Below are positions 1,714 through 54,700 of a stretch of 64,000 nt of DNA, piece after piece. Source of the stretch: Tubiluchus corallicola. Taxonomy: Eukaryota > Animalia > Priapulida. The stretch is taken from assembly GCA_030141605.1 (NCBI GenBank), contig JAQGDQ010000914.1, forward strand, positions 1 through 64,000, read 5' to 3'. How positions within the stretch are numbered: the stretch's first letter is position 1; each line of letters starts with the position of its first letter. A model generated the notes under the pieces. It ran no database searches. It was not told where the DNA came from and saw only the letters and a program-made list of their open reading frames with translations. Position numbers and translations under genes: made by a program.

Positions 1714-2925
1714 GCAGAGCCAAGAAATTGGTCCATGAATTTAAAACACGGGACCTGCAGAGCCAGGAAATTGGTCCATGAATTTAAAACACGGGGCCCG
1801 CAGAGCCAAGAAATTGGTCCATGAATTTAAAACACGGGACCTGCAGAGCCAAGAAATTGGTCCATGAATTTAAAACACGGGATCCGCAGAGCCAAGAAAT
1901 TGGCTCATGAATTTAAAACATGAGACCCGCAGAGCCAAGAAATTAGCCCATGAATTAAAACATGGGACCCGCAGAGCCAAGAAATTGGCTCATGAATTTA
2001 AAACATGAGACCCGCAGAGCCAAGAAATTGGCTCATGAATTTAAAACATGGGACCCGCAGAGCCAAGAAATTGGCTCATGAATTTAAAACACGGGATCCG
2101 CAGAGCCAAGAAATTAGCCCATGAATTTAAAACATGGGACCCGCAGAGCCAAGAAATTGGCTCATGAATTTAAAACATGAGACCCGCAGAGCCAAGAAAT
2201 TGGCTCATGAATTTAAAACATGAGACCCACAGAGCCAAGAAATTGGTTCATGAATTTAAAACACGAGACCCGGTGCCAATTGGCACATGAATTTAAAACA
2301 TGGGACCCGCACAGCCAAGAAATTTGCACGTGAATTTAAAACACATGACCTGCAGAGCCAATTGGCACATGAATTTAAAACACGAGACCCGCAGAGCCAA
2401 AAGAAATTAGCCCATGAATTTAAAACACGGGACCCGCAGAGCCAAGAAATTGGTTCATGAATTTAAAACACGAGACCCGCATAGCCAAGAAATTGGTTCA
2501 TGAATTTAAAACACGAGACCCGCAGAGCCAAGAGAAACTAGCCCATGAATTTAAAACATGGGACCCGCAGAGCCAAGAAATTGGTCCATGAATTTAAAAC
2601 ACGGGCCTGCAGAGCCAAGGAATTGGCACATGAATTTAAAACATGAGACCCGCAGAGCCAAGAAATTGGTTCATGAATTTAAAACACGGGACCCGCAGAG
2701 CCAAGAAATTGGCTCATGAATTTAAAACACGGGACCCGCACAGCCAAGAAATTGACACATGAATTTAAAACACGGGACCCGCAGAGCCAAGAAATTGGTC
2801 CATGAATTTAAAACAAAACAAGGGGCCCGCAGAGCCAAGGAATTGGCCCATGAATTTAAAACACGGGACTCGCAGAGCCTAGAAATGGGCCCATAAATTT
2901 AAAACACAGGACCAGCAGAGCCAAA
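1714..2925. repeat. 43-bp minisatellite, about 28 copies
   Basis: Unit gcagagccaagaaattggtccatgaatttaaaacacgggacc(c/t); copies start at 1714 and 1757, giving period 43. The last copy runs directly into a 5S-derived sequence. Confidence 0.95.
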
Positions 2926-3275
2926 TCACGTTGAAAACATCGGTTGTCGTCTGATTATCGAAGTTAAGCAATGTAGAGCCTAGTTAGTGAACACCCACGA
3001 ATACCAGGTGCTGTAGGCTCAGGATGCCCACACTGTATCTCGACACTAGGAGCTGCACAAGCAGCCAACAGCTAGAGGGCAGAGGAGGTCAAGTGACCCA
3101 ACGGCCATGTGTAGAGGAGTAAATCTTCCAAATCAGGAGACGTGCGCCCTGGAGACGCTCAAGGATCGCACTGCTCAGCCACAGTCGACGCTGCAGCTCC
3201 ATCAATGTGATCAATAACTGACTCTCTTGGCGCACACTCCATTGTCTTCCGAGACAGAAGGATGCCAACAACAAT
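2920..3275 (+). mobile_element. 5S rRNA-derived SINE (SINE3-type), near full length
   Basis: 2920-3020 is a degenerate 5S (atcacgttgaaaacatcggttgtcgtctgat...gaagttaagc...ataccaggtgctgtaggct, C-box region deleted). It is followed by a non-5S body shared with the copy at 25055-25256 and a 3' tail shared with 19668-19796, ending in caacaacaa. Confidence 0.85.
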
Positions 3276-3411: not shown

Positions 3412-4451
3412 TTACCTGGGAGATATCGTACTTACTTGAGCTGAACGATGTGAGGCGCCACTTACGTAAACTTTGCTGCTACATTTCCGGAATGGTCCGC
3501 ACCATATCCGTTGGTAATTCTGTCGAAATCTTGGATTTGTTATGGCATACAGGTACGGATTAATGAGAGAGTTAATGTACACCAGCCAGTAGGTGAACAT
3601 GTAAATGTAATCGTTCTCCATTGATAAATAGTAGCTTATTAGTTGACGGTAAACGGCATAAGGACTCCATGTGATGATGTAAGCAATGACGAGCACGAAA
3701 AGTGAAGTGGCTGCCTTTCTGTCCTTTGACAATAACTTGCGCGAATTTGCCTCTTTATGGGAGACGACAAAGTCCGTTTTATAGTTAAATTTTTTCTTTC
3801 TGTCATGGATGTTCTTATAAATGGAAATACTGAAGAACACGATGAGCGTTACCGGAATGAAAAAATCCGTGACATTCGTCCATATGGTGTATGGATGATG
3901 GTACAGGAACTCCACGTCACAGTAATTTTCCTCCAGTTCGGAGTAGCCCACAAAGTGCTCCCAACCAAAAATGCTGGGTCCCCAAAGCGCAAACACGATC
4001 ATCCACGTGACGATGATGATGCAGCGAGCCATTCTGATAGTTTGGTTCTGGTTGTATCTAGCGCCTTGCGAAACAAGTCGATATCGGTCCCAGCTGATGA
4101 GCACCATGGCAAACACGGATCCGGTGCACAGACAGAAGTCGATGAAGAGCCACAAGTCACAAAATACCATGGGAGCTAGCCACACCCAGTTCGCATAGAT
4201 GTCCTTGAATGCGAGAGGAGCGTCAATGCACCCAACTAAGAAGTCATTCGCTGCAAGATTAAGAATGAACGTATTTTGTACATTGCGCAGTTTCTTGTCT
4301 ATGCCGTATGACACGATTGTGGTCAAGTTGCCAAAAGTTGTCAGCAAACACTGGATGGTCACGAAAACGATCAAAAATGATCTTACGCCAGGTGGGAAAT
4401 AGTCAATATCATCTGTGTGATCGATATCGTCACATGATGTGATATTTGAAC
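3412..4451 (-). CDS. Class A aminergic GPCR, histamine H3/H4-like (main coding exon; upstream exon with start codon not located)
   Basis: Seven hydrophobic segments with GN (TM1), NLAANDFLVG (TM2), CDLWLFIDF with Asp3.32, ISWDRY, WGPSIFGWE, DFFIP, LSKDRKAATSL, WSPY and NSLINPYLYA. The frame stays open upstream of 4374 (SNITSCDD...) to a tttcag acceptor at 4452-4453 (phase 1); no in-frame ATG before an upstream stop. Confidence 0.88.
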
Positions 4452-5859
4452 CTGAAACATTATCAGTAGAACATTAGAGAAAACAACATTTTTTCTAAAA
4501 TCTGGCAGTGAATTGATACAAAAAGTTCCCTGTTCGCTTAGCAATACATAATCTTGGAATTCTATATACATTTCTAAATTTTGCACGTACAAATTGAAAC
4601 TTAAATTTACATTAAATTACATTATAGTCTTGTATCCCATCCAAGTCTTTCCTAAAAACTATCCTTTCAAATATATATTACCTAATATTATGCTTACTCG
4701 TTTGAAAGACTTACGTAGTTGGAAGAGAAGATAATTTAAAATCAATCAATTTATTTCACTCCAGCAATACATATACAATACATCAACATATAATATTATT
4801 GAAACAAAAAGAAACAGTATAGGTAAAAAAACGTTGATGAAGTCAAATTAACCAAATAAAAGAGTTGCTGTATGACACCTTGAAAGCCTGGCTTGTTAAG
4901 GTGGCACAAATGAGTGAATGAAAGAATGGTTAGGGTTAGTAGACATAATGGAATGGAAAAAATAGTAAGATTAGGGATAGGAAGAAGGAAAAGAGGAGAA
5001 GAAACGACCACAGTGTACGTTTAATTTGCATAGATGTATATTAAAATAGCATTATAATTGATTGGAGGCCATATATTGCAACTGCATCAGACATGGAAGC
5101 ATTAAAATTGTATTATAAGTGTTTGTACGAACTGGTAAAAACGCCCCAGTTAGCACCACTGGCTAACCAAAAACGTGTCATTTAATTAAAGTCCCACATG
5201 GAATGCAATGAGACGAGCACGCAAAATTACGATAAATATTATTTCCCGACCCGGCAGTATCTTGTGTCTACAAGGTCTAATCTACCAATTATGGTTTTAA
5301 CACAATTCTGCACTTTGCAAGCCACGACCAGCACTCAATAGCAGTGAATATTAATATATAATGAAATGGCAGGACGGGTACCTATCACATTATCAAGAAT
5401 AAGACACTGATTTAGCAGCGGTGTCCCAGCCATGTTCAGATGTTTATATAAATGTCATGCTTCCTCATCAAAGTAATCAGCGACAGTCAGTATGGCATTC
5501 AATCTAGGACCGGAATCTATCTAACTGTCAAAGATAATTACCTAGTATAATCTAAAACAATTATCTAAGATAAGATATGAGGGTGTGCCGTAAATAGATG
5601 CCTGTCTCCATGAGCGATGTGACAAACCGCACACGGGAAATTTTAAACCCGGTCATCACCATCTAATTACTGACCGAGTTCAGTGTTGCTTGCACATCAA
5701 CTACTTGGTTATTCATGTCACCCACAAATATGGCAATTGTGTCGAAACAGTAATGCCACTAGCTCATACGTTTTTTCATTCATAAATTTTCATTCACATG
5801 ACAATAATATTTATTATACACGAATTGCTGCCAATAGATAGTAAGATTATAGTTTTACG

Positions 5860-7058
5860 AAAACATGTACAACAAAGATACATATGAACAAACATGTACA
5901 GCAAAGATACATATGAACAAACATGTACAGCAAAGATACATACGAACAAACATGTATAGCAAAGATACGAACAAACATGTACAACAAAGATACATATGAA
6001 CAAACATGTACAGCAAAGATACGAACAAACATGTACAGCAAAGATACATATGAACAAACATGTACAGCAAAGATACATATGAACAAACATGTACAGCAAA
6101 GATACATATGAACAAACATGTACAGCAAAGATACATATGAACAAACATGTACAGCAAAGATACATATGAACAAACATGTACAGCAAAGATACATACGAAC
6201 AAACATGTATAGCAAAGATACGAACAAACATGTACAACAAAGATACATATGAACAAACATGTACAGCAAAGATACATACGAACAAACATGTACAGCAAAG
6301 ATACATATGAACAAACATGTACAACAAAGATACATATGAACAAACATGTACAGCAAAGATACATATGAACAAACATGTACAACAAAGATACATATGAACA
6401 AACATGTACAACAAAGATACATTTGAACAAACATGTACAACAAAGATACATATGAACAAACATGTACAACAAAGATACATATGAACAAACATGTACAACA
6501 AAGATACATATGAACAAACATGTACAACAAAGATACATACGAACAAACATGTACAACAAAGATACATATGAACAAACATGTACAACAAAGACACATATGA
6601 ACAAACATGTACAACAAAGATACATATGAACAAACATGTACAACAAAGATACATACGAACAAACATGTACAGCAAAGATACATACGAACAAACATGTACA
6701 GCAAAGATACATACGAACAAACATGTACAGCAAAGATACATACGAACAAACATGTACAGCAAAGATACATATGAACAAACATGTACAGCAAAGATACATA
6801 CGAACAAACATGTACAGCAAAGATACGAACAAACATGTACAGCAAAGATACATATGAACAAACATGTACAACAAAGATACATATGAACAAACATGTACAG
6901 CAAAGATACGAACAAACATGTACAGCAAAGATACATACGAACAAACATGTACAGCAAAGATACATATGAACAAACATGTACAGCAAAGATACGAACAAAC
7001 ATGTACAGCAAAGATACATATGAACAAACATGTACAACAAAGATACATATGAACAAAC
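5860..7058. repeat. 29-bp minisatellite, about 42 copies (with 25-bp deletion variants)
   Basis: Unit aaacatgtacagcaaagatacatatgaac; explains the long Cys/hydrophobic ORFs in all three minus frames. Confidence 0.95.
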
Positions 7059-7363
7059 AATCTAAATGTAGTAACAAAAATTTTAGTTGATCTAGTCTAT
7101 TAGTAACTTAGCATACGAATTCCTGTGCCTGTGTGAAAGTTTTCACCGTAACCTGAGTGACCACTGACTTTGTTTGGAGAGATTTGTATATAAGTATTTT
7201 AAAATGTAGGAAACATGTATTATGAATTTCATTTTTAAAATCGTCAAAAATTTGCGCATAAAATTTCGCGAAATGTCATATGAAACGCAATTGTGTTCTT
7301 AGTAAGAAAAGATTTTATTGTGAAATATCTGCTTACAGTTATCGCCTAGTTTCATTTTTGTCG

Positions 7364-10984: not shown

Positions 10985-11828
10985 CATGACTCAAATTACA
11001 CTTGCTACATACCGGGGATTAGGACCTTTAGTCCATTGCTATCTCTGCTACTGCATGACTCAAATTACACTTGCTACATACCGGGGATTAGGACCTTTAG
11101 TCCATTGCTATCTCTGCTACTGCATGACTGAAATTACACTTGCTACATACCGGGGATTAGGACCTTTAGTCCATTGCTATCTCTGCTACTGCATGACTGA
11201 AATTACACTTGCTACAGACCGGGGATTAGGACCTTTAGTCCATTGCTATCTCTGCTACTGCATGACTGAAATTACACTTGCTACATACCGGGGATTAGAA
11301 CCTTTAGTCCATTGCTATCTCTGCTACTGCATGACTCAAATTACACTTGCTACAGACCGGGGATTAGGACCTTTAGTCCATTGCTATCTCTGCTACTGCA
11401 TGACTGAAATTACACTTGCTACAGACCGGGGATTAGGACCTTTAGTCCATTGCTATCTCTGCTACTGCATGACTCAAATTACACTTGCTACATACCGGGG
11501 ATTAGGACATTTAGTCCATTGCTATCTCTGCTACTGCATGACTCAAATTACACTTGCTACAGACCGGGGATTAGGACCTTTAATCTATTGCTATCTCTGC
11601 TACTGCATGACTCAAATTACATTTGCTACAAACCGGGGATTAGGACCTGTAGTCCATTGCTATCTCTGCTATTGCATGACTCAAATTACACTTGTTACGG
11701 ACCGGGGATTAGGACCTTTAGTCCATTGCTATCTCTGCTACTGCATGACTCAAATTACACTTGCTACGGACCGGGGATTAGGACCTTTAGTCCATTGCTA
11801 TCTCTGCTACGGTATGACTCAAATTACA
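10985..11828. repeat. 69-bp minisatellite, about 12 copies
   Basis: Unit catgactcaaattacacttgctacataccggggattaggacctttagtccattgctatctctgctactg; followed by a (CAA/GCA)n low-complexity tract to about 12005. Confidence 0.95.
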
Positions 11829-21700: not shown

Positions 21701-22545
21701 CAACAATAACAACAGCAGCAGCAGCGCTTATGATGATCACGTTCGCGTTTCTCTCTCATATGTAAGTTTTCTTTTTGCAGCTTGACCTTGTAACGTGGAA
21801 CAACCGGACAATCGTCATGGCCAAAATGAAAAGGAAACGCAAAGTGGACGGTAACTTGGCGGGAATGTTAGAAAACTACATCAAATTCCAAACCAAAACC
21901 AACGTTGTTCAACTCATTGGTTACTGCAACAAAACTTTAACAATTTGCACGGAATACCATAAACTAGGCAACGCAAAGACCGTTCATCAAGTTCTAGAAC
22001 AATCGTCAGTTCATGATACAGCGAGACGTCGTCTAAAGTTGTGTATAGACTATGCAAGAGTCGCTGATTTCTTAGACAAACAAAACCTTTATCAGTGCGA
22101 CGCACACAGATTGAAGAAACTGTTGTCACAGTACCTCCTCACGGATGACCACCAGCTAGTTCTCAATGACCTTGAAGATATTAAACCTCGGGAAGCCAGC
22201 TGCACGTATATGAATCTTACCCTACGTTCAGATCTGAACTTCGAAGCACCAGAATCGAGATTGTGGAACGACACTGAATGCACCACAGTTACATGTGCCA
22301 AGAAGCAGCGAGCCATCAAACACGCAAATGAAGTGTTTAGAATACCGGATGTTTGCTTGTCATTCTTCTTCGGGATTAAGGATAATTGGGACCAGAATAA
22401 AAGGGAAAGATTTGCTTTTGCTGTTGATACCCTAGCGCCCGTGCATCAGGCTTGTAAAGATGCGGATCCAAATAAGAGACCGTCAATAAACTCTGTTGTG
22501 AAATTTTATCGAAACGTTCTGGCAAAAAATTCGAAATTTAAATAG
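17013..22545 (+). CDS. POMK: POMK/SGK196-like protein O-mannose kinase, about 341 aa, 3 exons (17013-17073, 20700-20899, 21781-22545)
   Basis: Exon 1 encodes a signal anchor (MVYREVKAVILISLLASVLY). Exon 2 CPAGFFRLKGMRNCSKWLNCEDL matches the POMK CPxGxFRxxxMxNCSxWLxC motif. Exon 3 has VVQLIGYC, TEYHKLG, QCD...KLLSQYLLT...LNDLE, FEAPE, RIPDV and HQACKDADPNKRP. Phases 1/0 are consistent; total 1026 nt. It may be a paralogue rather than the orthologue. Confidence 0.82.
19150..19800 (+). mobile_element. Degenerate retroelement 3' end sharing its last ~130 bp with the 5S-SINE
   Basis: 19668-19796 aligns closely to 3141-3268. Upstream sequence is unrelated to the SINE body and has frameshifted traces (HILS...YT(W)R...VL) resembling a LINE CCHC region. 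Confidence 0.55.
21190..21726. repeat. Compound (CAG/CAA/TAG)n microsatellite in POMK-like intron 2
   Basis: About 530 bp of agc/aac/agt triplets; source of the poly-Leu/Ser/Ala ORFs. Confidence 0.95.
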
Positions 22546-25054: not shown

Positions 25055-25256
25055 GTCACTTGACCGCCTCCGCCCTCTAGCTCTGGCTGCTTGTGCAGGT
25101 CCTCTGCCTAGTGTCAAGATACAGTGTGGGCACATCCCGCAAGCCTACAGCACCTGGTATTCCTAGGCGGTCACCAATCCAAGTACTAACCACTTCAGTG
25201 CTTAACTTCGGTGATCAGACGAAAACTGATGTTTTCAACGTGATATGGCCGTAGTC
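25055..25256 (-). mobile_element. 5S rRNA-derived SINE, 3'-truncated, abutting the STING-like stop codon
   Basis: Reverse complement reads gactacggccatatcacgttgaaaacatcagttttcgtctgatcaccgaagttaagc...ggttagtacttggattggtgaccgcctaggaataccaggtgctgtaggctt, then the same non-5S body as 3020-3096. There is no oligo-T terminator and there is an internal deletion. Confidence 0.9.
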
Positions 25257-28094
25257 ATTGTCCAATACTGTCGGCCATTTTACTCATGTCTTTCACAATT
25301 CGTATGCAATATTGTCCCTTGCAGTCGTCGTTATTTTCCAATAAACATCTCAACGTCTTGACGAACTCCTCAACTTCTCTCCTGAGGTCACCGCTATCCA
25401 CGTTCAAGTTATGATGATGGACCATTGCGTACATGGTTAGAAGGACTGCCGGACAATCGGCAACGAAATAAATATCCTAAAACAAAATGAAAAACGTTTT
25501 ATAAATCAGTTTGCAATTTAATTCCATTTTTGTAAATTTACAATTATTACAATCGTGTTATCATAACCTCTTAGGGAATACTAGACTGTCCAGACTTTGG
25601 TACGTGTTAGACAAACTACTGTAGAAGCTATTTTAACTTTATATTGTAATTCATGTATGATCTAGCAGAATCAATTTTCAAAAACAACTGTAAGCCTTCT
25701 TTTGTATTCACTGTTAAAACAGTAAAAATAATCTGATCCCATTTAACCTAAGTATAGCTGCTACTTAGAGCACTGGTTGGCTTGAATGAGTCAAAAAAAT
25801 GTTGAAAATAAAAGTATTCACGTCATATTTTTGCCATTGCACTTTTAAAGCTTGTACAAATGGAACCGTATCTGAAAACGTTACTCACTTTATTATTAGT
25901 TCTGCATTTGTACACTGTGTTGCGACCGTAGTTTCGACCAACATTTCCAGCTCGGTCAATTTTTCTGTCTCCAAGGTGACCAGCTTTCTGAACACGTCCA
26001 TCAGCTTCACTAAAACTTCCCGGACAATTGCAGTCTTCTGGAACTATTATCAGAAGAAATCCCTGTTGAATTTTTGTCCCAAATTCCGGCGAGGATGCCA
26101 CAAACTTGTTAAATTCTGTAAATATTGTGAATTAAAATAATAATTGAGTCAATCTTTGTACGTAACGTAACTATCTTAATTTCAAGATGATTTTAGTAGA
26201 TTTATACACTAAGGTTATTAAATTTTTGGAATCATGGTTAATCATTAAAAATTTAAAAAAACTCAAAATTGGAACTAATCTAGGAACTAGAATCAGTATT
26301 TTTGCGACGAGTCCAAATAATAATGTTAAAACTGATAATTTTCCATAATTACAGACAACTCCTGCTCAAACTCTTTGCACGTTTTTTATTCCAGAGCTTA
26401 GAAAATAAAAAAATCAAATCGCTATTTTTGGCAAAAGAAAATAACAAAGCCAAATAACTTTTGGCACTTCATATTCCTGATAACTGATATTTACATTTTG
26501 ATATCATCATGCAGCTATTTCTACTTCTGACACAGAGCTACATTATAAGACATCACTGTTTCTGAGATGCTTACCAGGCAAAATGATCCTCAAATACCCC
26601 AAGTAGTACGACCATGCCAAACCTGCACCTACATGGGTTGGGATAGACTGTAGTGAGGAAACAGTTTCCTCAAATTGCTCTTCGTCACTTTGTGAAATTC
26701 GTAGCGCTATCAAATCAGAAATGGTGGTCAGATCTTTGACTACAACGATGTCATACTGCCCTCTGAATGCTGGATTTGAAAAGAGGAGAAATTTAACAGT
26801 TCTGAGAAACTCTTGCATTTGCAACTGCAGCTCCTCTGGCAACATGTTAACGTCTCCACATTGTGACATCTCATAGAGATTCAGCAACGGTGTTGCAAAT
26901 TCACCAACAAAATAAGTCTCAACCTATAATGAACACCAGTAATTAAAAGATACATCCGACCAAAGAACAAATGAACGAATCAACAAATCAATTAATCTAC
27001 TATAACCATCCAGCCAGTCGGTAGTCGTGCCTTTACAGTATTTGCCTTTAGCAGTGTAAGTGTTTAGTAACTAATCATCTCTGTAAACTCTTATTTCAGT
27101 GATTATCAATGTTTTTAATGGCAAATAAAGATTATTAAACATATATTATGCGCATAGTTAGCATTTAGTTAGAAGGACAATGGTCAGTAAAACAGTCAGT
27201 GAATTGGTTGGTCACGTCAGTGAATTGAGACGGCCAGCCACTCAGCAAATCAGACAACATTCAGTTTGGAAAGTTAGTCCGCAATACTATGTTCGACTAT
27301 GATAAGTGTTTTAGTTTGTAAAAAAGTTATCTTTTAAGTCTTGTAATAGCCTGATTCTTTATGAATTTAGCAATTACAGAAGAATGCTTCGCCCCTGACG
27401 AAAAAATTGCAAAAAATATACGTGTAACAGATAAATTTCTCAATAAAAATATAAAATCATAAAATGATAAAGAAGTAAATAAAATACATTAGATATAGGC
27501 CTCTACTAGACAATGATATAATGACTCAATCAGCACTTACGTCATTTTGGGTGAATTTATATACGGAGTTTCGTCCATAATTACGTCGTACACTGCCTGC
27601 CCTATTGATAAACCGGTCCCCTAAATGGCCAGCGTGTTGAATTCGGCTGTCTGCCAAACCGAGGCTCTTGGGACAAAAGCAGTCTTCTGGCATTATGATA
27701 AAGAATTTTTTTGCTGATATTTTCTCTCCAAACTCTTCGGAGGATGCAACAAAAGTGCCAAAATCTGTAAATTCAAACCGTTTAATCAATGAAATAAATT
27801 AACGCCGGTTAATTGGCTAATGATTTTGTTGCAGAATAAACCCTAAAATGAATTGGACAAACCAGAAAATTAAAACAGAGATTACACTGTAAAGGTAGAC
27901 TGTATAATGCAAATAAAATTTAATATTGAAAAAGAGTTTTAGCTAAAGATATTTCATAGGCCTATAATAGTCTACTTCGATCACTTACCTTTTAATATAA
28001 TGTTTAGAAATCCATCGAAATACCCAAAAGCAAAGCCTTGCGCAGCATCTTTACTCACTTCACCAACGTTTAACGAACCACGTACATCAGACAT
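25255..28094 (-). CDS. Tandem double STING (TMEM173) ligand-binding-domain protein, 375 aa, no TM/TIR; 5 exons: 28094-27989, 27764-27541, 26923-26575, 26115-25889, 25476-25255
   Basis: All junctions are GT-AG with phases 1/0/1/0; 1128 nt open. Domain 1: AQGFAFGYFDGFLNIIL / FIIMPEDC / NRAGSVRRNYGRNSVY / VGEFATPLLNLYEMSQ. Domain 2: GAGLAWSYYLGYLRIILP / IIVPEDC / DRAGNVGRNYGRNTVY / VADCPAVLLTMYAM. These match human STING AHGLAWSYYIGYLRLILP, ILLPLDC, DRAGIKDRVYSNSIY and VLEYATPLQTLFAMSQ. Confidence 0.92.
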
Positions 28095-28189
28095 TTTAGT
28101 AGAACTTATATATTAGAAGATCGTTTCTGATATTATTCTGTCACAGTCGTAAGTTGACTTTAATTTGATCTCTACTGCGTTGCAGTCCC

Positions 28190-28482
28190 TACTTATATAT
28201 AGCATACTGTTTCGGGGATCCCCATGCAAGTTGTTGTCAAAATAGAGAACCGGGGAAAACCGGATTGCTATCCTTTGTGAAACTTGCGTGCGCAGATGTA
28301 TTTACAGATGTTGGTACTTTGACACGCCTACAGACACCCGTAGCCTTGCATAGAAGAACAGTTGGTTTGTAAGCAGCGTTTTGATTGGATACAAAAGATG
28401 ATGCACCCTGACGTCACATGATTAGCGTAACGGATACTACACTCCCCCTGGCACGAATCATCTGCTGCAGACGGTTTTCCCC
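28190..28482 (-). promoter_or_regulatory. Putative immune-inducible promoter of the STING-STING gene
   Basis: TATATAAG (28192-28199, minus); palindromic kB site GGGGATCCCC (28214-28223); GGGGAAAACC twice in inverted orientation (28252-28261, 28473-28482); CCAAT (28384-28388, minus); CRE TGACGTCA (28409-28416). Confidence 0.6.
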
Positions 28483-29576: not shown

Positions 29577-31974
29577 CTGGCAAAAAATTGAAAACAGATA
29601 TCATGTTAATAAAGTATTTTAAACAGCATAAAAAGCCTTACGATTCAAAATGTGAGGTAGAGGAACACAAGCGAATGTAAAATTTTTTGCTGTTGGCAGG
29701 GATCATACTTTTTCTGTAGCTGATTAACTTAATTAAAATTTGATTTTAAAGTCAATAAAGAATTCAAATGCCATTAATCCTATATAGAGCAATGGGATTT
29801 GCTTTATAACTACAATTTATGATTTATAATTACAACACTTTAATTAATCCGGCTTTGATTACAGTTGATTATGAGGATCATCAAGGATCTTATTCTTTCT
29901 TGCTAAATTTTATGAAAACTATATTTAGCCAAGGTCTTCTCTACTTTTTCTGCTCACCAAGAAGAACCGATATTGCTGTGATCTTTTCTATTCCCCTTTG
30001 CAATGATTTCCTAACCTGGGCATAAAATCGTGCAATTTTTGCTAATATTTGCTTAAGCAAACAAAGGCTCATACTTTGAATATCTGAATAATGATGTTTA
30101 CTGGAAATCGTGAAATATATTATCTCCTCTGTGACGTAACACACCTCGTGACAACAGCTCACACAGCGTGACAACAACTACCTTTAGTAAACAACATAAC
30201 AGCTAATGTTTAATCAGCAGGTAAACTGATTGTGCTTTTTCATAAAGACAAATTTGCAGGGCGGCAGTTATATTTGCACGGAGTTAAAACTTCAAGTACC
30301 CGAAAAATGACTTTTCAATTTAAACAGAATGTAGAGACGAAGTTTCAAAGCACTGCAAAATACAAAGACATAAGTATAATAAAGAAACTAAGCCAGTTAA
30401 CATTGCTTTAAGATAAATGAGCATTAAAAATCTCTCTAGCCTTTGAACATCAAGCCTGCGATGTATTTCTTCTATAATTAACTGATCATGTGCTCATCTG
30501 TAAGATTTATCCAGTTTTTGTATTTTTTTCGTTTGTTAGGTTACGGAAATGGAATAAATTTGATTGTTCCATTCAATAGACGACCCTTATATCGACTGCT
30601 CGAGTTACATAAGTCCCAATGGCATCTTTTAACCTTGATTATAACCACATAAATAGAGTAAAATTAGCTAATATTACATTGATGTATAATATAAATTTTG
30701 GCCACATTTGAGTAAATGTGGACCATGAAGATCTTATCGAGGTTTATAAAAGCTGACCAGAAAAGAAAATATTTTGCCTGAAAACATTTTGTCTGCATAT
30801 GGGGTTTCTACGAGTGTCCTCGGTTACTCATAATCATGACAGTTGTCACGGATTCTCGTGAATGAGTTCAACCAATACCGAATAGCTTATTCTCTACAAC
30901 TTACACAAACCTACTTAGAGTAATGTTATAACTAGTCGTTTAAAAATTCACATATTCTCATATATGAGCTTAATTCAATACACCTTTCCATTCTGTAGCA
31001 CTAATGTTTTCTTTATCATACGATTCACTTCATATTTTCAGATTATTTTCATTAATTTTTTTTACTTTTTTACTTTTTTTTCTTCACAGTGTGGGACAAT
31101 CTAACAAGCCCTGCTTTTTGATTGCCCGCAACACATTTACATTTGTATATGTAGCAAACCTAAACTATGGTATATCTAAACTAGTTATGTGCTCAAAGTA
31201 AACTGTATACGAATTTACTAAGCAACATACAACAGCGATAATTCTCTTGTTTATCTTTCAACCCCACAGTGTTTTGAGAGTCAAGTTAGTATATTTGCAA
31301 TGATGCTGTACATAACGTTGTTTAGACACCAGTATTAAAGGAAGTAGCGATATCACTATCTTTGTTTACCATAGGTTGACCTACGTCTAAAGACAATTTA
31401 AATCATTTTTTCCAAAATTTGCTTCCAATTATGTATCTTACTATTTGTTATTCATTGAATTATTGATAACTTTTTGTTTCTTTTAATGTATTAATTGTGT
31501 ATTTGTGTTGATGTGAAATAAATAAACAATAAGCAATAAATAAAAAATTAGTATTACATACCAACTAGTATTATAAAAGATAGTATAGTAATATAGTTAT
31601 GGGAATATATAATTATATAGAATTATATAATAGGAATATAGTAATATAATACTATATTCAGTGAGTGATAGCTTGATGTGTTTTAGAAGAAAGGTAGAAT
31701 GATATGTTTAGTTGTTTACAGGCTAACATATACTAGCCAATAATTCGAAAACAGCCAGAAAAATTCATGAGCCAAAACATTAATTTTTACACTAACTGCC
31801 GTTTGTCTTGTGAAAAGCGTGATACGTGTATATTATGGGTTCAGTAGTGATGCACTCACTTTACACTCGCTCTGCGTGTAATTAAAACTGGAAACTACAA
31901 CTATATTACAACTATAACTCAAAAGCTATTTTGATAAGGTAATTATTATTTCCTATTTTATGAACTCAATAAGA

Positions 31975-32031
31975 TTTAATAATAATAATAATAATAATAA
32001 CAATAATAATAATAACAACAACAACAACAAC

Positions 32032-32084
<53 letters not shown>

Positions 32085-32092
32085 TAATAAAA
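31975..32092. repeat. (AAT/AAC)n microsatellite
   Basis: Direct inspection. Confidence 0.95.
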
Positions 32093-33703
32093 ATATCGTT
32101 GATGAAAAACAATAAAATTTGCCCAAAATCTGGCTTTTTCATCCAGAAAATGCCTGTAAAAGAGTAAGTAAAGAGTGAGTAATAACCAATCAGGAGCTGA
32201 GACAAATTTGATATCATCATTACCACTGATAACATCAGCATGCACAACTTGACTTCAATGTTTAATCTATTGTAGTACAGTAGTATTGTATTCCTTCACC
32301 ACTATTATATCACACTGCCTAACGAAGCTAGAGTGCTAAATGAGCTGCTTTGTTAACTAACAACTTATTGTCCAGCTAGCGAGTTACACAAGACAGCACA
32401 AGGCAATACCTATGTACTGCATGCTGGCGTGAATTAAACATAAGGTCGTGCAAGTTTTCATGATGGCAACTCGGCCAACAAGCACAGTATTTAATAAAAT
32501 AAAGAAATTTTTACAGAATTTCTAAAAATACGGAGTAGTGCAACTGCGGTACATGAGTTAGTGAGTTACATGCCTTTACAACCCGTATTCAACAACTCCG
32601 CCATTTTAATTTGACGTCATCAACCTTTGCTGCAGATAGCTAGTCCACTACATTTTCAGCCTGTTGTAACATTTGTGTTTGTAGCAATAAATGCATTTAA
32701 AAATGAAGCCCATCTTTTTGATACACTTGTTTATTTTAAAAACTTCCTTTAGGCTTTGATGTTTTTTGTCTACTGTCTAGCTGTCTACTTAGATGTGCTG
32801 TCTACACAGGCTAGAGGTCTATAACTAAGAGACTAGTAGGCTATATTTTAGCTACGTATGTAATCACCATTGTTTACCAAACTTTATTTGCAGCTTTACG
32901 GTGCAGTGCAAAATTATTAATAATGACATTAGAAATAAATTAAAATAAGTTTATGCAGGCATTGTCATATCTTTTTATCCATCCTTACATACATATCCGA
33001 GGGCTGTGAATTAATAAACACCAATGCAGTTTTTGATTTTTTAATTATCACACTGCTTCATTAACTTTTTTACAAATATTTCAATGTGAATAATTGCTCA
33101 TAGTTCAGTATTATTTTCCTTGCATCCATTATAACAAATTACTGTCAGGCAAATTAGGTTTACCTGATAAGCGTTAATAGTTTCTGTAAGAGGTTTGCAC
33201 TATTTTTTGAAATATTTTTCACTAAATGGAATTCGTTGCATAAGGGAAGAGATAAATTATTTCAGCGGTCTTTGATCAGACCTACAGAGTTCGTGTGATT
33301 TCATACTGGTAAAAAACTGAAACTGAACTAATTTGCGAGATAACCCTCGGCGAGAGAGATAACCCATGTTTACAATTTTGAACTGGCATTGCCGCGTCAG
33401 CAAAACTCGTAATTATCAAATTAAAATTTACGATTACTAAATCAAGTTTATTGCAAGAGGATACTATCACGTTGGTACGCCTAAAATGTCCAGAAGTGAG
33501 GATTTCAGAAGATTATAGGGCCAGTAAAACTGTTACTATCGCTGAAGCTCGGTGCACTCCGTTATTATTGCCTCTGGCATTGGTAAGATAGTAAGGTACT
33601 TACCAACTGGGATCCAAATAATAATGAATCACGACGAATATTTCTACACGAAAATTATGATGATGTCAATTTCTTTCACCTTATTTCATTTCTGTAGAAT
33701 ATT

Positions 33704-42700: not shown

Positions 42701-45700
42701 GGATAAGGGTAAAGGTATTTAAATTGTACGGGGAATTGTAAACTCCTTACTAAAACGTAAACATTTAGTATGGGAGATAAATTCTCTCTTTTTACTATCG
42801 AAGAGTGTTGACGTTTTGTATGTAGTTTCATATCATGATGTGTTCTTATCTAGGACATATAATGCAGGCTTACAATATGGAGGAAACATTAATGCTTAAT
42901 GCTCCGTGTTGTTCGTGATGCTTAGTTTATCGCCTTTTACAGAAAGCAAACTGCCTTGTACGGAGGATGTACCAACATGTGGAGACACGTGTGAGAAGGT
43001 TTTGAGCTGCGCCATTCATTACTGCATTCAGATGTGTCATACAGGTCCTTGTGCAAAGGTCAAATTTTAGATTTTAAAATTCCTCTATGGTTACTTTCCT
43101 TGAATCACAAACTAGTTGTGCAACACCGATGGTCTAATTTTTGTTACTGTAGAAGACACAGGGCTTACTGTGTAGAAGATCCAGGGCTTACTGTGTAGAA
43201 GACCCAGGGCTTACTGTGTAGAAGACCCAGGGCTTACTGTGTAGAAGACAGGGCTTACTGTGTAGAAGACCCAGGGCTTACTGTGTAGAAGACCCAGGGC
43301 TTCCTGTGTAGAAGACCCAGGGCTTACTGTGTAGAAGACACAGGGCTTACTGTGTAGAAGACCCAGGGCTTACTGTGTAGAAGACCCAGGGCTTACTGTG
43401 TAGAAGACCCAGGGCTTACTGTGTAGAAGACCCAGGGCTTACTGTGTAGAAGACCCAGGGCTTACTGTGTAGAAGACCCAGGGCTTACTGTCGATGCACA
43501 CGTTTTCCAGACTGACCCAAATGACTGGGCTTTGATCTTTACCGTCGGCCACTTCATGTTTGTTATTGTTATGAAGCCACATCGCTAAATTTCAGCTTTG
43601 CGTCTTTAAAACTTTGGGAAGAAAAGCCCAACTGAGAAAACCAACAGAAATGTAGAAGATTGAATTTAATTAAATAATATGGAGCTTACCTTATAACCTA
43701 AAAGTTGTTGTTGATATAAGTGTGTTGCCATAACCGTGTTTCATAGTATAACTACGTATAAGTAAGTGAATTTCATTACTGAATGTGATTCAAGATATGG
43801 AGCAGCAAACAATCGTTTTATACTTTCGGAGGGAGGGAGCACTGTGCAAATCACATCCTGGGGCTCACTTAAGGCTAGTAGCACACCCCTCGGTTTTAGA
43901 TTTTCAAAATTAATCAGTGACGGCTGTTATTAATATTTGCATGAATGAGCGAAAGACAATCTCTCATTGTTTAGCACTTTATAAATGCAGACAAGAAACA
44001 TGATGCGTTCAGTTTACATCCGGTTTTGTTTAAACTGTTTTTATACAAACGTTTCAATTCTCTGGGCATTTTATTAATTCAAAACAAAAATTAGCTACTG
44101 ACTTTGAGTAACAGATAGCTTTTAGGTGCTAATCAATGAAAAGCATAACTTTCTGTACCTCAATAAACTGCTGAACAAAAACAGACTGTCTTGTTTAAGC
44201 AAGATGAGCGTACCGTTGCAATTGTTTTTGTTTTATAATTCATTTTTGTAAGTCTCATACACCGAGTCTTTGGCACTGTATTCATTTTGGCACATTTATT
44301 AAATTAGAGATGAATTTTGGTGCAAACTGCACATGTCACGTTACACATTTGAGAACTTTTCAGCAATGTGTGTTTAGAAAAAAGGAATCAGAAAATGCGA
44401 CTATGAAACCCTTTTTCATTTGTTTAACATTATTTGTTTAACATGTTCATGTTTTTCTTGGTTTGCAGTGCAGACAATTGGTTGAAAAGCGCTGTAGATG
44501 TGGTGCCAGGAAGAAGTCGGTGCTTTGCGGTGCAGAATATACATGCGAAACGAAATGTTCGCGTATGAAGAACTGCAGCAGACACGCATGTAAACGAAAA
44601 GTATGTTCAAGTGTTTGCTTCTGTTGTTTCTGCCGTAGATTTTTCTGTTTTGTATCCGTGCGGTCGATGCAAGTGTCTGCGCAATGTTGACTTTTTAGCT
44701 TTGCCTCATGTTGGTAATGGCAAAAGAGAGAATTTTTTTATGATTTTGCTGTGCATGATTTAGGTGCCTCTTTTGACAACTACTTGGTTTTTACATTCAG
44801 AGCTCTGAAATTGAAGCAGCAATGGAATCGAGTTGGCAACTTGTTTGATCATTTATAGAAAATAATCTATTTGTTATTTTACTGTTTTGACTGATTAGTT
44901 AAAAGCCTAATATCGTTCACTTCAACATCTAACGAGCCACCATTAATGTGTCTATGCGTAGAGCTTTGATTAACGTCACCTAAGTTTCGATCTTCCCCTG
45001 CAAGTATCTTGTCTGATAGCGGCTTCACTAAATTAGTGACACGTTCCATTATCATCGCCTATGTCATTTTTTCAAAATAATCGATGACTTAGTGCCCCAC
45101 TATTTAAGTGCAATTCTGCCGCCAAAGGTTAACGAAGTTACCCCGTATTATATGCGCAGTGGTACTAAATACAAAAATTTTAATTGCCGTTCTGTTAGCT
45201 GTGAAAAATCGTTTTTCATATCGACCATTAACATGTGGAACAACTTGCCACAGAACATTCGTGAAATTACATCCATTTCACAATTCAAACAAGAGCTCAA
45301 ATCACATTTAAGTTTTTCGTTGCGTAAGAAACATTTTTCGTTTGGTAAACCTCCAATATCAGTGCATCATACGCGCATGAGAATCGGATTTTCTCAGCTA
45401 AACTATGACCTTTTCTCTAAAGGCTGTATGTAAAGGTAATAACGGTCATCCAATATAGCCGAATTGTAACTGTGGATTTCGATTTGAGTCTGTTGAACAC
45501 TTTTTGTTGCACTGCCGATTGTATCAACTAGCTAGGGTTGCTATGCAATAAATTGAATGCAATACTTCTGCCCGAAAACCTTAATATAGCTGTCTTAGGA
45601 AATAATGATCTGTTGAAGTTGTTATTATTCGGTAAAGATGAATTTAACTATGTTACTAACTGTAAAATATTCCAATGTATACATGACTTTATATTATGTA

Positions 45701-48700: not shown

Positions 48701-51700
48701 GGTTCTTCTCTCTTCTCTACCACGTTCGTTTCACGTCCGTTAGTGGCTTAGTCGAGTGACTTTCATCTTTTCCCACATCTAATCTATCATTCCTGGCAGC
48801 TCTAATGCAACCCCGTTCATTTCTGTTACCGCGAACGAGATTTCTCTTTTACTGCGATGCTCATTCTCTCAAGTTCGTAAAACGTGGCTGACCTCACTAC
48901 AGTGCCTGACCTCACTAGAGTAACCGACCTCACTACAGCAGCCAACCTCACTACAGCGGCCGACCTCACTACAGCGGCCAACCTCACTACAGTGGCTGAT
49001 CTCACTACAGTGGCTGACCTCGCTACAGTGACTGACCTCACTACAGCGGCTGATCTCACTACAGTGGCTGACCTCACTACAGTGGCCGACCTCACTACAG
49101 CGGCTGATCTCACTACAGTGGCTGATCTCACTACAGTGGCTGACGTTTCTACCGTTTCTTATACTTTCCTTTTCAGTTTCACACTTTTGCCATATAATAC
49201 AGCTTTGATTAGTAATTGCAGCATGAAAAGATAGCTGTCTGTTATCTGGCTAGAATTGACATTGTGATCCTGCATTGAGTTTGCTAATGAAAATATCTGT
49301 GTCTGTTCAGGAAGCCACCTATATGTCACCACAAGGTGCAGGAAAAGCATCGCTGTCACTCCGGGAAGTGTCCACCTTGTCGTCAGTGCTGCGATATTCA
49401 ACTGCCCTGTGGTCATCGATGTCCGAACACTTGTCACACGGCAGTATTGGTCAAGTTACAGGAAAAGGTAAAAAATTATTGAACTATTTGACAACATTAA
49501 TTGATAGGTGTGACATGGAATGGCTTTTGTGATAAGGGTTATTGTGATAATGAATTATATTATTGATAGTGTTTTTCAAATATTTAAGTTTTGTTGTATG
49601 TTTTTAAGTAAGAGATTTTCTCTAGTTCTTATTTAACCAGTTGAAGTGTTGTGTGTAAGTAAAATGAAATCAATATATTTTATTTTGTGAGCAAAATTAT
49701 TACACAACTTTGCAATATATATGAAATGACTTGAACTGTTTGTCTTTTATTTTGTGTTTCATAGTTGTTATAAGTAATTTTTCAAAGCAACATGTTGCTA
49801 TAATCCGTTGCACAAATTATGAACAACTGATCATACATGTTGCAGAAGCTGTGTTCCTTTTTTGCAGATGCATGTTGCTTGTATGCTGTCATGTGTTAGA
49901 TAATTTCTGCTTAGTTGCTCAATGATACATTGACTTTTTATATGTGTGGAAGTCATTATGCCTTACTATTTTAAGGGCACTGTTGTGAGGGCAGGCCCGT
50001 GGGAACCAGCGCCACAAGCTAGAGTTGAGTTGGTGAAGTATGATTGCAGACCGTGTATTGTTGCCGTACCCGTAACCTGCCACGGGAAGCATGAGGTAAT
50101 GATGACTGTTAGTGTCTCTGAGAGGCATTTATGACAACTTCAAAAGTCTCAGTTAAATTTACATGTAAACCACTGATCTTTATTTCTGCAATATTTAAAA
50201 ATTAAAATAGAAAGGCAAAGGTGACTGACATTGGCTAATTTTATGAAAAGTTACATAGTTTAGTTAGATTTACAGTCATTTAGTCCATTCAAAAATATCA
50301 ATGAATAAATCAAAATAAAAATTAATAGAAGTAAACTTACATCGTTGCGGCATATATCTAATGAAAAATTTCGCTAGCTTGTACAAGACACATGTTCACA
50401 TACACTACAGAACAGCATAATGAAAATATAACTTGGTCAATGCCCACACTTTAAACTTTCTAGCTAGATGGAGCCACCTTGGCTACAAAATTAAAATTTA
50501 TTAAGTCAGGTTCACACTGGCCTTAATAATGATGCACAGTGAGATCCAGCCTTTGTAATGCTATGGACCAACTGTGTTAGTTTTTTGTTTATATGCGATG
50601 GATTTTGTAGTTTTGACTGCCTTGACCACTGGGAGATGCGCATGCCTAGTGGTCTAAGGTGTCTGCAATGTAAGCAGACGGTCGCTAGATTTCCTATCAT
50701 TCTTGTTTGGCAGCAAAATTAAGTTAATTATGGGTTTTAAACATCACCAGAGAGCATGTTCATCACTCTGTCTGAAATTCCTCTTCAATTCGTCACTGAG
50801 AGTTTAACACCTCCCCAATTCTTCACTGAGAGTTAAACACTTCTCCAATTCGTCACTGAGAATTAAACACCTCTCCAATTCATCACTGAGAGTTAAACAC
50901 CTCCCCAATTCGTCACTGAGAATTAAACACCTCCCCAATTCGTCACTGAGAGTTAAACACCTCCCCAATTCGTCACTGAGAGTTAAACACCTCCCCAATT
51001 CGTCACTGAGAGTTAAACACCTCTCCAATTCGTCACTGAGAATTAAACACCTCCCCAATTTGTCACTGAGAGTTAAACACCTCCCCAATTCGTCACTGAG
51101 AGCTAAACACTTCCCCAATTTGTCACTGATAGTTAAACACCTGTCCAATTCATCACTGAGAATTAAACACCTCCCCAATTCGTCACTGAGAATTAAACAC
51201 CTCCCCAATTCGTCACTGAGAGTTAAACACCTCCCCAATTTGTCACTGAGAGTTAAACACCTCCTCAATTCGTCACTGAGACTTAAACACCTCCCCAATT
51301 CGTCAGTGAGAGTTAAACACCTCCCCAATTCGTCACTGAGAGTTAAACACCTCTCCTATTCGTCACTGAGAGTTAAACACCTCCCCAATTCGTCTCTGAG
51401 AGTTAAACACCTCCCTAATTCGTCACTGACAGTTAAACACCTCCCCAATTTGTCACTGAGAATTAAACACCTCACCAATTCGTCACTGAGAGTTAAACAC
51501 TTCCCCAATTCGTCACTGAGTGAATTAAACACCTCTCCAATTCATCACTGAGACTTAAACACCTCCCCAATTCGTCACTGAGAGTTAAACGCCTCCTCAA
51601 TTCGTCACCGAGAGTTAAACACCTCCCCAATTCGTCACCGAGAGTTAAACACCTCCCCAATTCGTCACCGAGAGTTAAACACTTCTCCAATTTGTCACTG

Positions 51701-54700
51701 AGAGTTAAACACCTCTCCAATTCGTCACCGAGAGTTAAACACCTCCCCAATTTGTCACTGAGAGTTAAACACTTCTCCAATTTGTCACTGAGAGTTAAAC
51801 ACCTCCCCAATTCGTCACCGAGAGTTAAACACTTCTCCAATTCGTCACCGAGAGTTAAACACCTCTCCAATTCATCACCGAGAGTTAAACACCTCCCCAA
51901 TTCGTCACCGAGAGTTAAACACCTCCCCAATTCGTCACCGAGAGTTAAACACTTCTCCAGTTCGTCACTGAGAGTTAAACACCTCCCCAATTTGTCACCA
52001 AGAGTTAAACACCTCTCCAATTCGTCACTGAGAGTTAAACACCTCCTCAATTCGTCACCGAGAGTTAAACACCTCTCCAATTCGTCACCGAGAGTTAAAC
52101 ACCTCTCCAATTCGTCACCGAGAGTTAAACACCTCCTCAATTCGTCACCGAGAGTTAAACACCTCTCCAATTCGTCACTGAGAGTTAAACACCTCCCCAA
52201 TTTGTCACCGAGAGTTAAACACCTCTCCAATTCGTCACCGAGCGTTAAACACTTCTCCAATTCGTCACTGAGAGTTAAACACCTCCCCAATTTGTCACCA
52301 AGAGTTAAACACCTCTCCAATTCGTCACCGAGAGTTAAACACTTCTCCAATTCGTCACTGAGAGTTAAACACCTCCCCAATTTGTCACCGAGAGTTAAAC
52401 ACCTCTCCAATTCGTCACCGAGAGTTAAACACCTCACCAATTCGTCACTGAGAGTTAAACACTTCTCCAATTCGTCACCGAGAGGTAAACACCTCCCCAA
52501 TTCGTCACTGAGAGTTAAACACCTCCCCAGTTCGTCACTGAGAGTTAAACACCTCCCGTTTGAGAATTATTGCTACAGCATAGCAGTATGCAAAGTAACA
52601 ACATGTTTCCAATTTTACTGTAAATTTTTTGCAAACGGTGAAAAAGATTGCAGTCCTTTGAAGACCCCAAATTTATGTAAATTGTTTTTGTAGCTAGAAT
52701 GATAACGAATTGAATTATAGTTAGTTTAATTCCTGTTTTTTCAGTAACATAAATTTTTGAGGCAGATCAATTTCGGCTTTGCGTGATATTCTGTATACAG
52801 AAAAATCGATTTCTTTTATTTAAATAATCGTTTAGCATGAGCTATTAGAGAATATATGCAGACTCACTTTCGACCAGACGGTTTAGTCTAGTGGTAATGC
52901 ATCTGCTTTCCGTCTGGGAGGTTGTGAGTTCGAACCAGCAGCCGGGTTATACCAAAGACTTTAAAAATGGTACCTGCTTTGCCCTGCCTGACGCGTGGTA
53001 TTTAGGGTAAAAGTGGGGTAATAATAGTCTCTGTTATGTAGTTGTAGGTTGTTATTTACAGTCGGCGATAATAGCTCTTTGAGCTAATGTTAATTGTTGA
53101 CCCAAAAGCCGACTTTAAATAAAGATTATTATTATTATTATTATTATTAGCTTTCTTCACAAGTGGTTGAAGTAACACAAGTAATTTATAGTTTTACTAT
53201 AGAAAGTTACTACTCGGTTTCACTGACTGGAGTTATTATAATTTTAGATCACTGACTTCGCATGCTCCGAAGCAGCCCCGTATTCGTGTGGAAGAAATTG
53301 TGGACAACCGCTAGCCTGTGGTAATCATAGATGTACGCTCGAGTGCCACGTGGTAAAAACTTCACACAACAGCGGATCTCAGGTTAATAGCAGTCATAAT
53401 TAAGATGAATAGAGTTCTTTCGTAGTCTTAGATGTTTCATTGATTACAGTAATTGAGGTGGGCACTGTGGGTACTAGTTCTTGCTACTGTTTCATTTCAC
53501 TTTGACTTCGAATTATCAACTCAAAAGTTGAACCATAGGGACACTGACTGTGAAAATCATTTTTGAAATTGTTGTTCAGTCACTTTGTTATGATTGAGTT
53601 TAGGCACAGAGAAGTATGGATAGGAACCAAAAATCTATAATAAATATTTGCACTGCACACAACAGAAAGTGTTTATTGAACTACAGAAAACATGAGTAGC
53701 AAAACTGCTGCACTGAACATTGAGCAAAAACTAGAAAGCAAAAACAGTCAGTAAAACCTGTTTCACAGCCAGTATACAGGTATAGAACTTGACCTATGCA
53801 GAGTTATACAGGCTTCACAACAACCATTAATTTTAGATAGGGAGAGGACCAGTGTGTATGTAGTCACTGGACCATACAATTATGCTGAAGGTAAGTCAGC
53901 TGGTAGAATGTAACAAGATTAGCACATAGATGGCAGCACCTAACTGCAATGTACAATTCCAACTTCCACACTGACATACTATTAATTAGCTATAGTTTTT
54001 ATGTTTTTTTGGCTGTAGATGGGAGAACCTTGTGAAGAGTGTGACTCTCAATGTGACAAGCCTCGGCCAGAGGGATGTACACATGCGTGCCTAGAAGCGT
54101 GCCACCCAGGTAAAAACACGTAGAACTCGTATTTGTATTTACCTTTGTTGACTTTTTAAGACTCGTTGTAGTTCTAGGAATATAAAGAAGTCTTTTTTGT
54201 TGCAGCACAGGAAAACCCTCCACTTAAAAATGCGTCTTGAAATTTTATGCCACTTCCATACTACCTTTTTGCATACAGGGCTTGCATCGGCAACAACGCT
54301 GTATAAAACATGTAAATTTAAACTCCCTCGATGACAGTTAGATGCAGCTATTTTGACGAGGAGTCATTTGAAACAAGTTTAGATAACACTGAGTAAAGTT
54401 CGAAAAACAATCAGAGCATTCGTCGTGCACACACCACTAATTAAGTAAAATTTTTAAATTACTGTAATGATGCTATGGGAGTGAAATGAGTACAAAAAAA
54501 TCTAACCTGTATCAAAAGAGATTTGAGTTAGGCCCTTTGGGGCTTCGTTTTCAATTCTGAAAATAGAAAAAAATCTTTTTTAAAAGAAATTAGTAAGTGA
54601 ATGTGCTTGTGAATTAATATTTTGTAGCAGCCCAGGATGTACGCAGAAACAAGATAGTCAAATAGCAGCAAAATGCAGATACGCGAAAATTTAATTCAAC

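Follow-up and report, generated by a model that had tools for sequence, protein, structure and literature searches.

A gene on the minus strand of the 64-kb window (the whole stretch of DNA analysed) encodes a 375-residue protein made up of two STING ligand-binding domains joined by a linker of 20 residues. The spliced protein contains no transmembrane (TM) segment (its highest 19-residue hydropathy window is 1.45), no TIR domain and no C-terminal tail. This is a new architecture of a known domain, and it is conserved. We give an even chance to the view that the protein is a soluble, likely immune-inducible cyclic-dinucleotide sponge that damps ordinary STING signalling.

The gene consists of five exons, whose joined coding sequence of 1128 nt comprises 375 codons and a TGA stop:

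27989..28094, minus strand: exon 1, the ATG and the dimer-stem helix of STING domain 1 (gene model; covered by the spliced X2 contig described below)
27541..27764, minus strand: exon 2, core and lid of domain 1 (Pfam STING_LBD, E 1.4e-10; X2 contig)
26575..26923, minus strand: exon 3, C-terminal half of domain 1, linker and stem helix of domain 2 (Pfam STING_LBD in two stretches, E 6.6e-18)
26642..26701, minus strand: inter-domain linker within exon 3, residues ~185–204 (gap between the two profile envelopes)
25889..26115, minus strand: exon 4, core and lid of domain 2 (Pfam STING_LBD, E 8.8e-11; X2 contig)
25255..25476, minus strand: exon 5, C-terminal half of domain 2 and the TGA stop (Pfam STING_LBD, E 3.2e-06)

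A preliminary description of this DNA had proposed an intact five-exon, 375-residue reading frame, two ligand-binding domains with a linker of about 20 residues, and an internal duplication. All three proposals were borne out, and the five-exon double-STING gene is confirmed as real. Its four introns are all GT–AG, with phases 1, 0, 1 and 0. Of 16 acceptor combinations compared for exons 3 and 5, only the chosen one gives AG at both exons and zero internal stops. The Pfam profile STING_LBD (PF15009) matches four of the five exon frames with 27.1–65.1 bits (cut-off 27). Exon 1 has no Pfam match but is matched by a STING profile built from the hits (E 0.001), which finds all five exons and nothing else significant among the window's 1972 six-frame segments. 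The domains span about residues 14–184 and 205–375, and the two halves are 46% identical (78/171; E 3e-55). In each domain, the stem helix is followed by an intron of phase 1 and the lid by one of phase 0; this common placement identifies the gene as an internal duplication, the junction of which sits inside exon 3.

The region upstream of the ATG contains the following features:

28095..28168, minus strand: 5′ untranslated leader, contiguous with exon 1 (X2 contig aligned without a joint)
28192..28201, minus strand: TATA box, ~25–30 nt above the start of the X2 alignment (motif scan)
28214..28223, no strand assigned: palindromic NF-κB-like site, one of two strict-consensus matches in 64 kb
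28252..28261, plus strand: NF-κB-like site of the insect-type consensus, a 10-mer
28409..28416, no strand assigned: CRE-like palindrome (motif scan), weak alone, being one of five such palindromes in the window
28473..28482, minus strand: second copy of the NF-κB-like 10-mer (motif count)

The in-frame TAA 21 nt above the ATG (28115–28113) and the TATA box (28201–28192) were found as previously described, and the leader at 28095..28168 contains no upstream ATG. The accompanying claim that no credible acceptor lies near the ATG needs correction. An AG at 28106, between the TAA and the ATG, occurs as AAG 10 nt above the ATG, and its pyrimidine content of 0.53 falls inside the range of true acceptors (0.47–0.74), so its composition is acceptor-like. 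A contig of 1241 nt from run X2 crosses this AAG unspliced. Run X2 is RNA by guess; among the RNA runs listed, none carried the window's own sequence, a blank to which we attach no weight. The contig differs from the window at 126 letters over about 1130 aligned (89% identity) and skips 224, 617, 459 and 412 bases, exactly the four predicted introns when unaligned letters at two joints are allowed for. It represents a close homologue and not the window's allele, as it lacks a SINE that run X1 shares with the window. The contig aligns unbroken from 28168 to the first donor and shows no upstream exon; 28168 is the position where the TATA box predicts the start, although a contig end cannot prove a start site. 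The gene is likely expressed, although the X2 contig may be a retrocopy instead of a transcript.

Three NF-κB-like sites lie within 390 nt upstream. The palindromic site stands 13 nt above the TATA box, and the 10-mer of 28252..28261 occurs twice in 64 kb, both times within 390 nt of the ATG. The consensus patterns used are those we take to be correct for NF-κB, one of them chosen after the sequence was seen. From these motifs, the gene may be inducible by NF-κB.

None of 102 N-terminal regions of related STINGs (TM, TIR and others) matches the upstream 10 kb or the window, and a hydrophobic frame at 31969–32295 has no Pfam match. Upstream TM or TIR exons were rejected on these grounds and on the absence of an upstream exon from the X2 contig. 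The earlier judgement that such an N-terminal exon is unlikely therefore stands, given the start of the contig at the TATA-predicted site and the lack of TM or TIR homology upstream. An alternative transcript of a full-length STING gene does not describe the locus either, since the gene has its own TATA promoter and no TM exons in the 10 kb upstream. The same evidence bears on the reading in which the frame would be either the 3′ portion of some longer STING with TM or TIR exons or a functionless duplicate in decay. Such a reading would be helped by the AAG below the in-frame stop, by the roughly 10 kb of upstream DNA without an assigned gene and by a SINE inserted at the stop codon. Against it stand the unspliced X2 sequence through the AAG, its beginning at the predicted start and the missing upstream homology, together with the relatives of the protein.

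Three relatives were found by word-indexed searches. P0001 (373 aa, complete, on a 1280-nt contig) is identical to the window protein at 315 of 375 positions (84%), P0002 is a partial relative of 229 aa, and P0003, which has 303 aa and is 62% identical to P0001, breaks off past the second lid. The starts of P0001 and P0003 coincide with that of the window protein, which speaks against a truncated gene. Over the 97 codons of exon 3, dS is 0.335 and dN 0.082, giving a dN/dS of 0.24 (computed from 35/40 differences; Fisher p 1.4e-4). Exon 3 is under purifying selection, and the neutral ratio that the preliminary description had named as counting against its interpretation was not seen. Conservation is uneven along the chain. 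The segments of the stem, lid and 260-helix are identical to those of P0001 at 87 of 88 positions, the loop after the 260-helix at 17 of 26, and the termini and the linker are the least conserved parts of the protein. The variation of this loop says little, because the lateral loop varies in all STINGs.

The 3′ end of the gene coincides with a mobile element:

25055..25256, minus strand: 5S-rRNA-derived, SINE-like insertion (Rfam RF00001, E 2.8e-12 at 25256–25142)

Its first two bases are the last two bases of the TGA stop codon. The element consists of a 5S head and about 85 nt of unrelated tail, and a second copy near 2911–3097 on the plus strand is 80% identical over 196 nt. With a contig depth near 19,000 in run X1, the SINE-like family is apparently very abundant; the element is absent from the X2 contig. 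Loss of a C-terminal tail through this insertion was considered and rejected, as X2 without the SINE stops one codon earlier. The stops of P0001 and P0002 also lie no more than two codons away from that of the window protein. With a stop position common to relatives without the SINE and a dN/dS of 0.24, a fragment or relic is, in our estimate, very improbable.

AlphaFold2 was run on P0001 in place of the window protein, with a 25-row alignment of double-STING proteins. The model has a pLDDT of 90 and a pTM of 0.89; both lid hairpins are ordered, and only the N-terminus and the linker, a coil with a pLDDT of 56–79, are uncertain. In a Foldseek search, the best matches were ligand-bound coral STING chains, with rmsd values of 1.5–2.1 Å per domain and an E of 3e-13. 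The TM-score by target was 0.85–0.92 for the top coral chains, as expected of a STING fold, and all listed matches were STING. A double-STING protein of a tick was also modelled as one unit (pTM 0.87). The covalent pseudo-dimer suggested in the preliminary description is thus feasible, in that the single-chain model of P0001 is a confident two-domain unit. An intramolecular pairing in the usual V-shaped geometry is what we infer from these scores. So high a pTM requires a defined arrangement of the two domains, but, given the known dimerisation of STING, any linked pair of STING domains would be expected to reach it.

Pairing between chains (1+1, 2+2 or swapped) would instead yield ligand-dependent chains or networks. 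Each half retains a full stem helix, and STING normally dimerises between chains, according to the accessible text of PMC9980059. Set against this are linkers of 17–34 residues, which fit intramolecular pairing in the two models (pTM 0.89 and 0.87, from single-chain predictions that cannot weigh pairing between chains), and local concentration, which would favour the linked partner. We regard inter-chain pairing as improbable.

The ligand pocket appears complete in both halves. In human numbering, the equivalents of R232, R238 and Y240 and an aromatic residue at position 167 (F in half 1 and Y in half 2 of the window protein) are found in both halves of the window protein, P0001 and P0003. The lid arginine and two stacking aromatics typical of the STING family are therefore present twice. 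Our assignment of the human-numbered positions 163, 166, 264 and 267 is presumptive; positions 162, 167, 232, 238, 240, 260 and 263 were taken from the literature. The aromatics and the lid arginine are universal ligand contacts of STING, whereas positions 162 and 263 set linkage specificity, with S162 contacting the guanosine 3′-OH and T263 the guanine base (PMC9980059, accessible text). At the pocket base, half 1 has G162, E260 and T263, and half 2 has S162, D260 and A263. The state of half 1 is common to the window protein, P0001 and P0003, and that of half 2 to the window protein, P0001 and P0002. Of 132 rows with a single domain, 123 have E260 and 96 have T263. Each half thus retains one of the two contacts, T263 in half 1 and S162 in half 2, from which we would expect an asymmetric ligand to be held in one orientation. 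A symmetric homodimer cannot differ between its sides at the pocket base, but a fused pair can.

Of the roles raised in the preliminary description, namely sponge, filament cap and soluble sensor, the indirect evidence favours the sponge. In the sponge reading, the two domains would pair within one chain to give a pre-formed, asymmetric cyclic-dinucleotide pocket, and each chain would bind one cyclic dinucleotide in a fixed orientation. NF-κB would drive induction of the gene, and the product would compete with membrane or TIR STING for ligand while being unable to signal by itself. An ordinary STING pathway to be damped is assumed. With its two dimer faces engaged in pairing within the chain, the protein would act on the ligand and not through heterodimerisation with ordinary STING.

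A functional precedent by analogy is provided by human STING-β and STING-ΔN, which, like the window protein, are TM-reduced forms of STING ligand-binding domains. Both bind and sequester cGAMP; STING-ΔN, which sequesters 2′3′-cGAMP, rises late in infection and is described as inhibitory and without reporter-activating activity in the accessible part of PMC12181837. Differences exist as well. The human forms are single-domain isoforms of one STING gene that retain the tail and have STING and TBK1 as further binding partners; the window protein is a fused, diverged pair encoded by a gene of its own, under its own promoter. The phage sponges Acb2, Tad1, Tad2 and Acb4 resemble the window protein in the proposed sequestering of nucleotide immune signals, as far as the accessible accounts go. 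They are virus-encoded, with folds unrelated as far as compared, whereas the window gene belongs to the host and has spliceosomal introns.

The complete pocket and lid in both halves would also serve a soluble sensor, in which the chain closes on a cyclic dinucleotide and signals via a kinase, an adaptor or a TM- or TIR-STING filament that it joins or seeds. Filament formation depends chiefly on STING–STING contacts that ligand binding exposes (PMC9402430, accessible text), and NF-κB sites also fit positive feedback. A tail may be dispensable for signalling, because tail-less oyster STING is reported to interact with TBK1 in the accessible text of PMC5869526. On the other side, no effector, tail or conserved extra surface was found in the protein, the termini and linker being its least conserved parts; conservation is lower in the putative lateral loop than in the pocket, and the analogous human STING-ΔN is inhibitory in the account quoted above. 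A sensor role is judged rather unlikely.

In another reading, the asymmetric pseudo-dimer would join the end of a STING filament by one face while the other blocks growth. We take the loop after the 260-helix to be the lateral filament face. The halves have diverged to 46% identity and differ in this loop, which would suit such a cap. Neither lateral loop is strongly conserved, though, with 10/13 and 7/13 positions of the two halves identical to P0001 and 5/13 to P0003, and the assignment of the loop is presumptive. No ordinary STING or cGLR, and hence no partner STING, was seen within the 64-kb window. In the accessible text of PMC9402430, dimeric units stack laterally in filaments, as a cap would require. 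A filament cap is, on balance, decidedly unlikely.

Comparison with known STING systems sets the window protein apart. TM-STINGs, including those of human and Stylophora pistillata (Sp-STING1/3, PDB 8EFM, 8EFN, 8GJZ), share their ligand-binding fold with the P0001 model and their lid and stacking residues with the window protein. Unlike them, the window protein lacks the N-terminal transmembrane domain and the tail, and it carries two non-identical domains per chain, with pocket-base residues that are unlike on each side, where TM-STING forms a homodimer. The lophotrochozoan TIR-STING and TIR-STING-TIR-STING proteins (oyster, PDB 6WT6/6WT7; Ylistrum and Lingula models) are also soluble STINGs, and two STING domains per chain have been reported in oyster (PMC11103948, accessible text). 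In contrast, the window protein has no TIR fused to STING, its domains are joined directly by 20 residues, and the halves of its family make up a clade of their own, separate from the TIR-STING domains in the tree. The profile search proposed in the preliminary description had the expected outcome on the homologue: P0001 has only STING-type domains above the Pfam cut-off (232 bits, two stretches), with no STING_TM or TIR match, whereas P0006, P0009 and P0017 do score for TIR.

The distribution of the architecture was surveyed from the best 150 of 345 matches, with 152 proteins classified. Among these 152, five consist of STING-STING only, 20 combine several STING domains with other regions, 32 have a single STING with a short N-terminus (many of them probably fragments) and 95 have a single STING with a long N-terminus. 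The five, among the matches listed, are P0001, P0003, Ornithodoros turicata XP_064457177.1, Capitella teleta ELT98160.1 and P0126; their linkers range over 17–34 residues. P0005 (Paramuricea, partial; two near-identical STING domains and a 108-residue leader) was left out of the count and may be a fused gene model. The proteome search suggested earlier thus shows the form also in tick and annelid gene models, namely Ornithodoros turicata and Capitella teleta. The architecture is therefore present in public databases, apparently unremarked. No description of an effector-less double STING was found in the literature searched, whose supplementary architecture tables may contain such a form, and the sole match to "tandem STING" was an optogenetic tail construct.

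The tick (XP_064457177.1/XP_064457176.1), Capitella and P0126 proteins resemble the window family in having two STING_LBD matches, a short N-terminus and, as in P0001, no other Pfam domain. They are only 23–28% identical to P0001 and derive from separate duplications, as judged from a tree of 61 of 188 domains, comprising the domains of the focal proteins plus the 36 others closest to them. The seven window-family domains come together in a single clade (99/99), within which first halves separate from second halves. In the tick, the halves group with ordinary tick STINGs of Amblyomma and Ixodes (97/90), the tick pair itself receiving only 92/43; the two halves of the Capitella protein are paired with 99/96 support, to which a long-branch warning applies, and the placement of the P0126 halves is unresolved. 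The test rejects a single ancient duplication common to this family, the tick and Capitella (AU p 2e-9 against the grouping of all first halves; long branches apply). Provided that the tick and Capitella proteins, which are predictions known from gene models alone, are real fusions, the architecture probably has three or more origins. The pockets of the Capitella protein (P0059) and P0126 are degenerate, unlike those of the window family, with the R232 equivalents lost in both halves, so not every double STING need bind ligand.

Related forms were met in the same survey. P0006 (Ylistrum balloti XP_060080375.1) has 1422 aa, four STING domains and TIR domains. P0007, P0008, P0154, P0131 and P0132 are double STINGs with spacers of 150–250 residues, which may be another or a diverged domain; P0007, P0008, P0131 and P0132 have no TIR match in Pfam at E 0.001. 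Short single-domain STINGs without an N-terminal region include the P0023 cluster (five JGI/Logan members, 198 aa) and the models Priapulus XP_014670249.1 and Lingula XP_013421964.1. Some of these may be genuine soluble STINGs and a possible precursor state.

The STING receptors described in the accessible literature are homodimers with a symmetric pocket, while their ligands are often asymmetric. A natural fused pair with conserved, unlike sides is thus a direct test of how ligand specificity is encoded. A wider reading, offered tentatively, is that animals repeatedly built dedicated single-chain STING pseudo-dimers out of their own STING genes, and that the halves, released from two-fold symmetry, would read different ends of an asymmetric cyclic dinucleotide, making a host-encoded, ligand-selective sponge. 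It takes together the window lineage, soft ticks and Capitella. Such genes would be the animal equivalent of the anti-CBASS sponges of phages and would be dedicated to switching off cGLR–STING signalling. If the protein is a sponge, animals evolved a dedicated gene that buffers cyclic-dinucleotide signals, apparently more than once, and the protein would serve as a natural scaffold on which to build cGAMP biosensors or dampers of excessive STING activity. The double STING is small, soluble and easy to assay, and the proposed mechanism is concrete and easily tested.

Other features of the window were recorded. Next downstream of the STING gene, and encoded on the other strand, comes a kinase-like frame at 21766–22545 (+) with a weak PK_Tyr_Ser-Thr match (E 2e-05), which we take to be POMK/PKDCC-like. 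A multi-exon, cysteine-rich gene from 38063 onward (+), presumably NFXL1, is transcribed away from the STING gene and has only a sub-threshold Pfam C1_2 match. At 3412–4473 (−) lies a single-frame rhodopsin-family GPCR (Pfam 7tm_1, E 7e-44), which presumably belongs near the aminergic receptors. Long tandem-repeat arrays occupy 1713–2924, 5856–7059, 10985–11828, 43148–43491 and 50759–52560. An uninterrupted frame of 757 codons at 61725–63998 (−), open at the window edge, encodes the splicing factor Cactin; its long branch falls outside the sampled molluscs, arthropods and vertebrates, which marks the host as an animal lacking close annotated relatives, and it is at most 65% identical to any sampled homologue.
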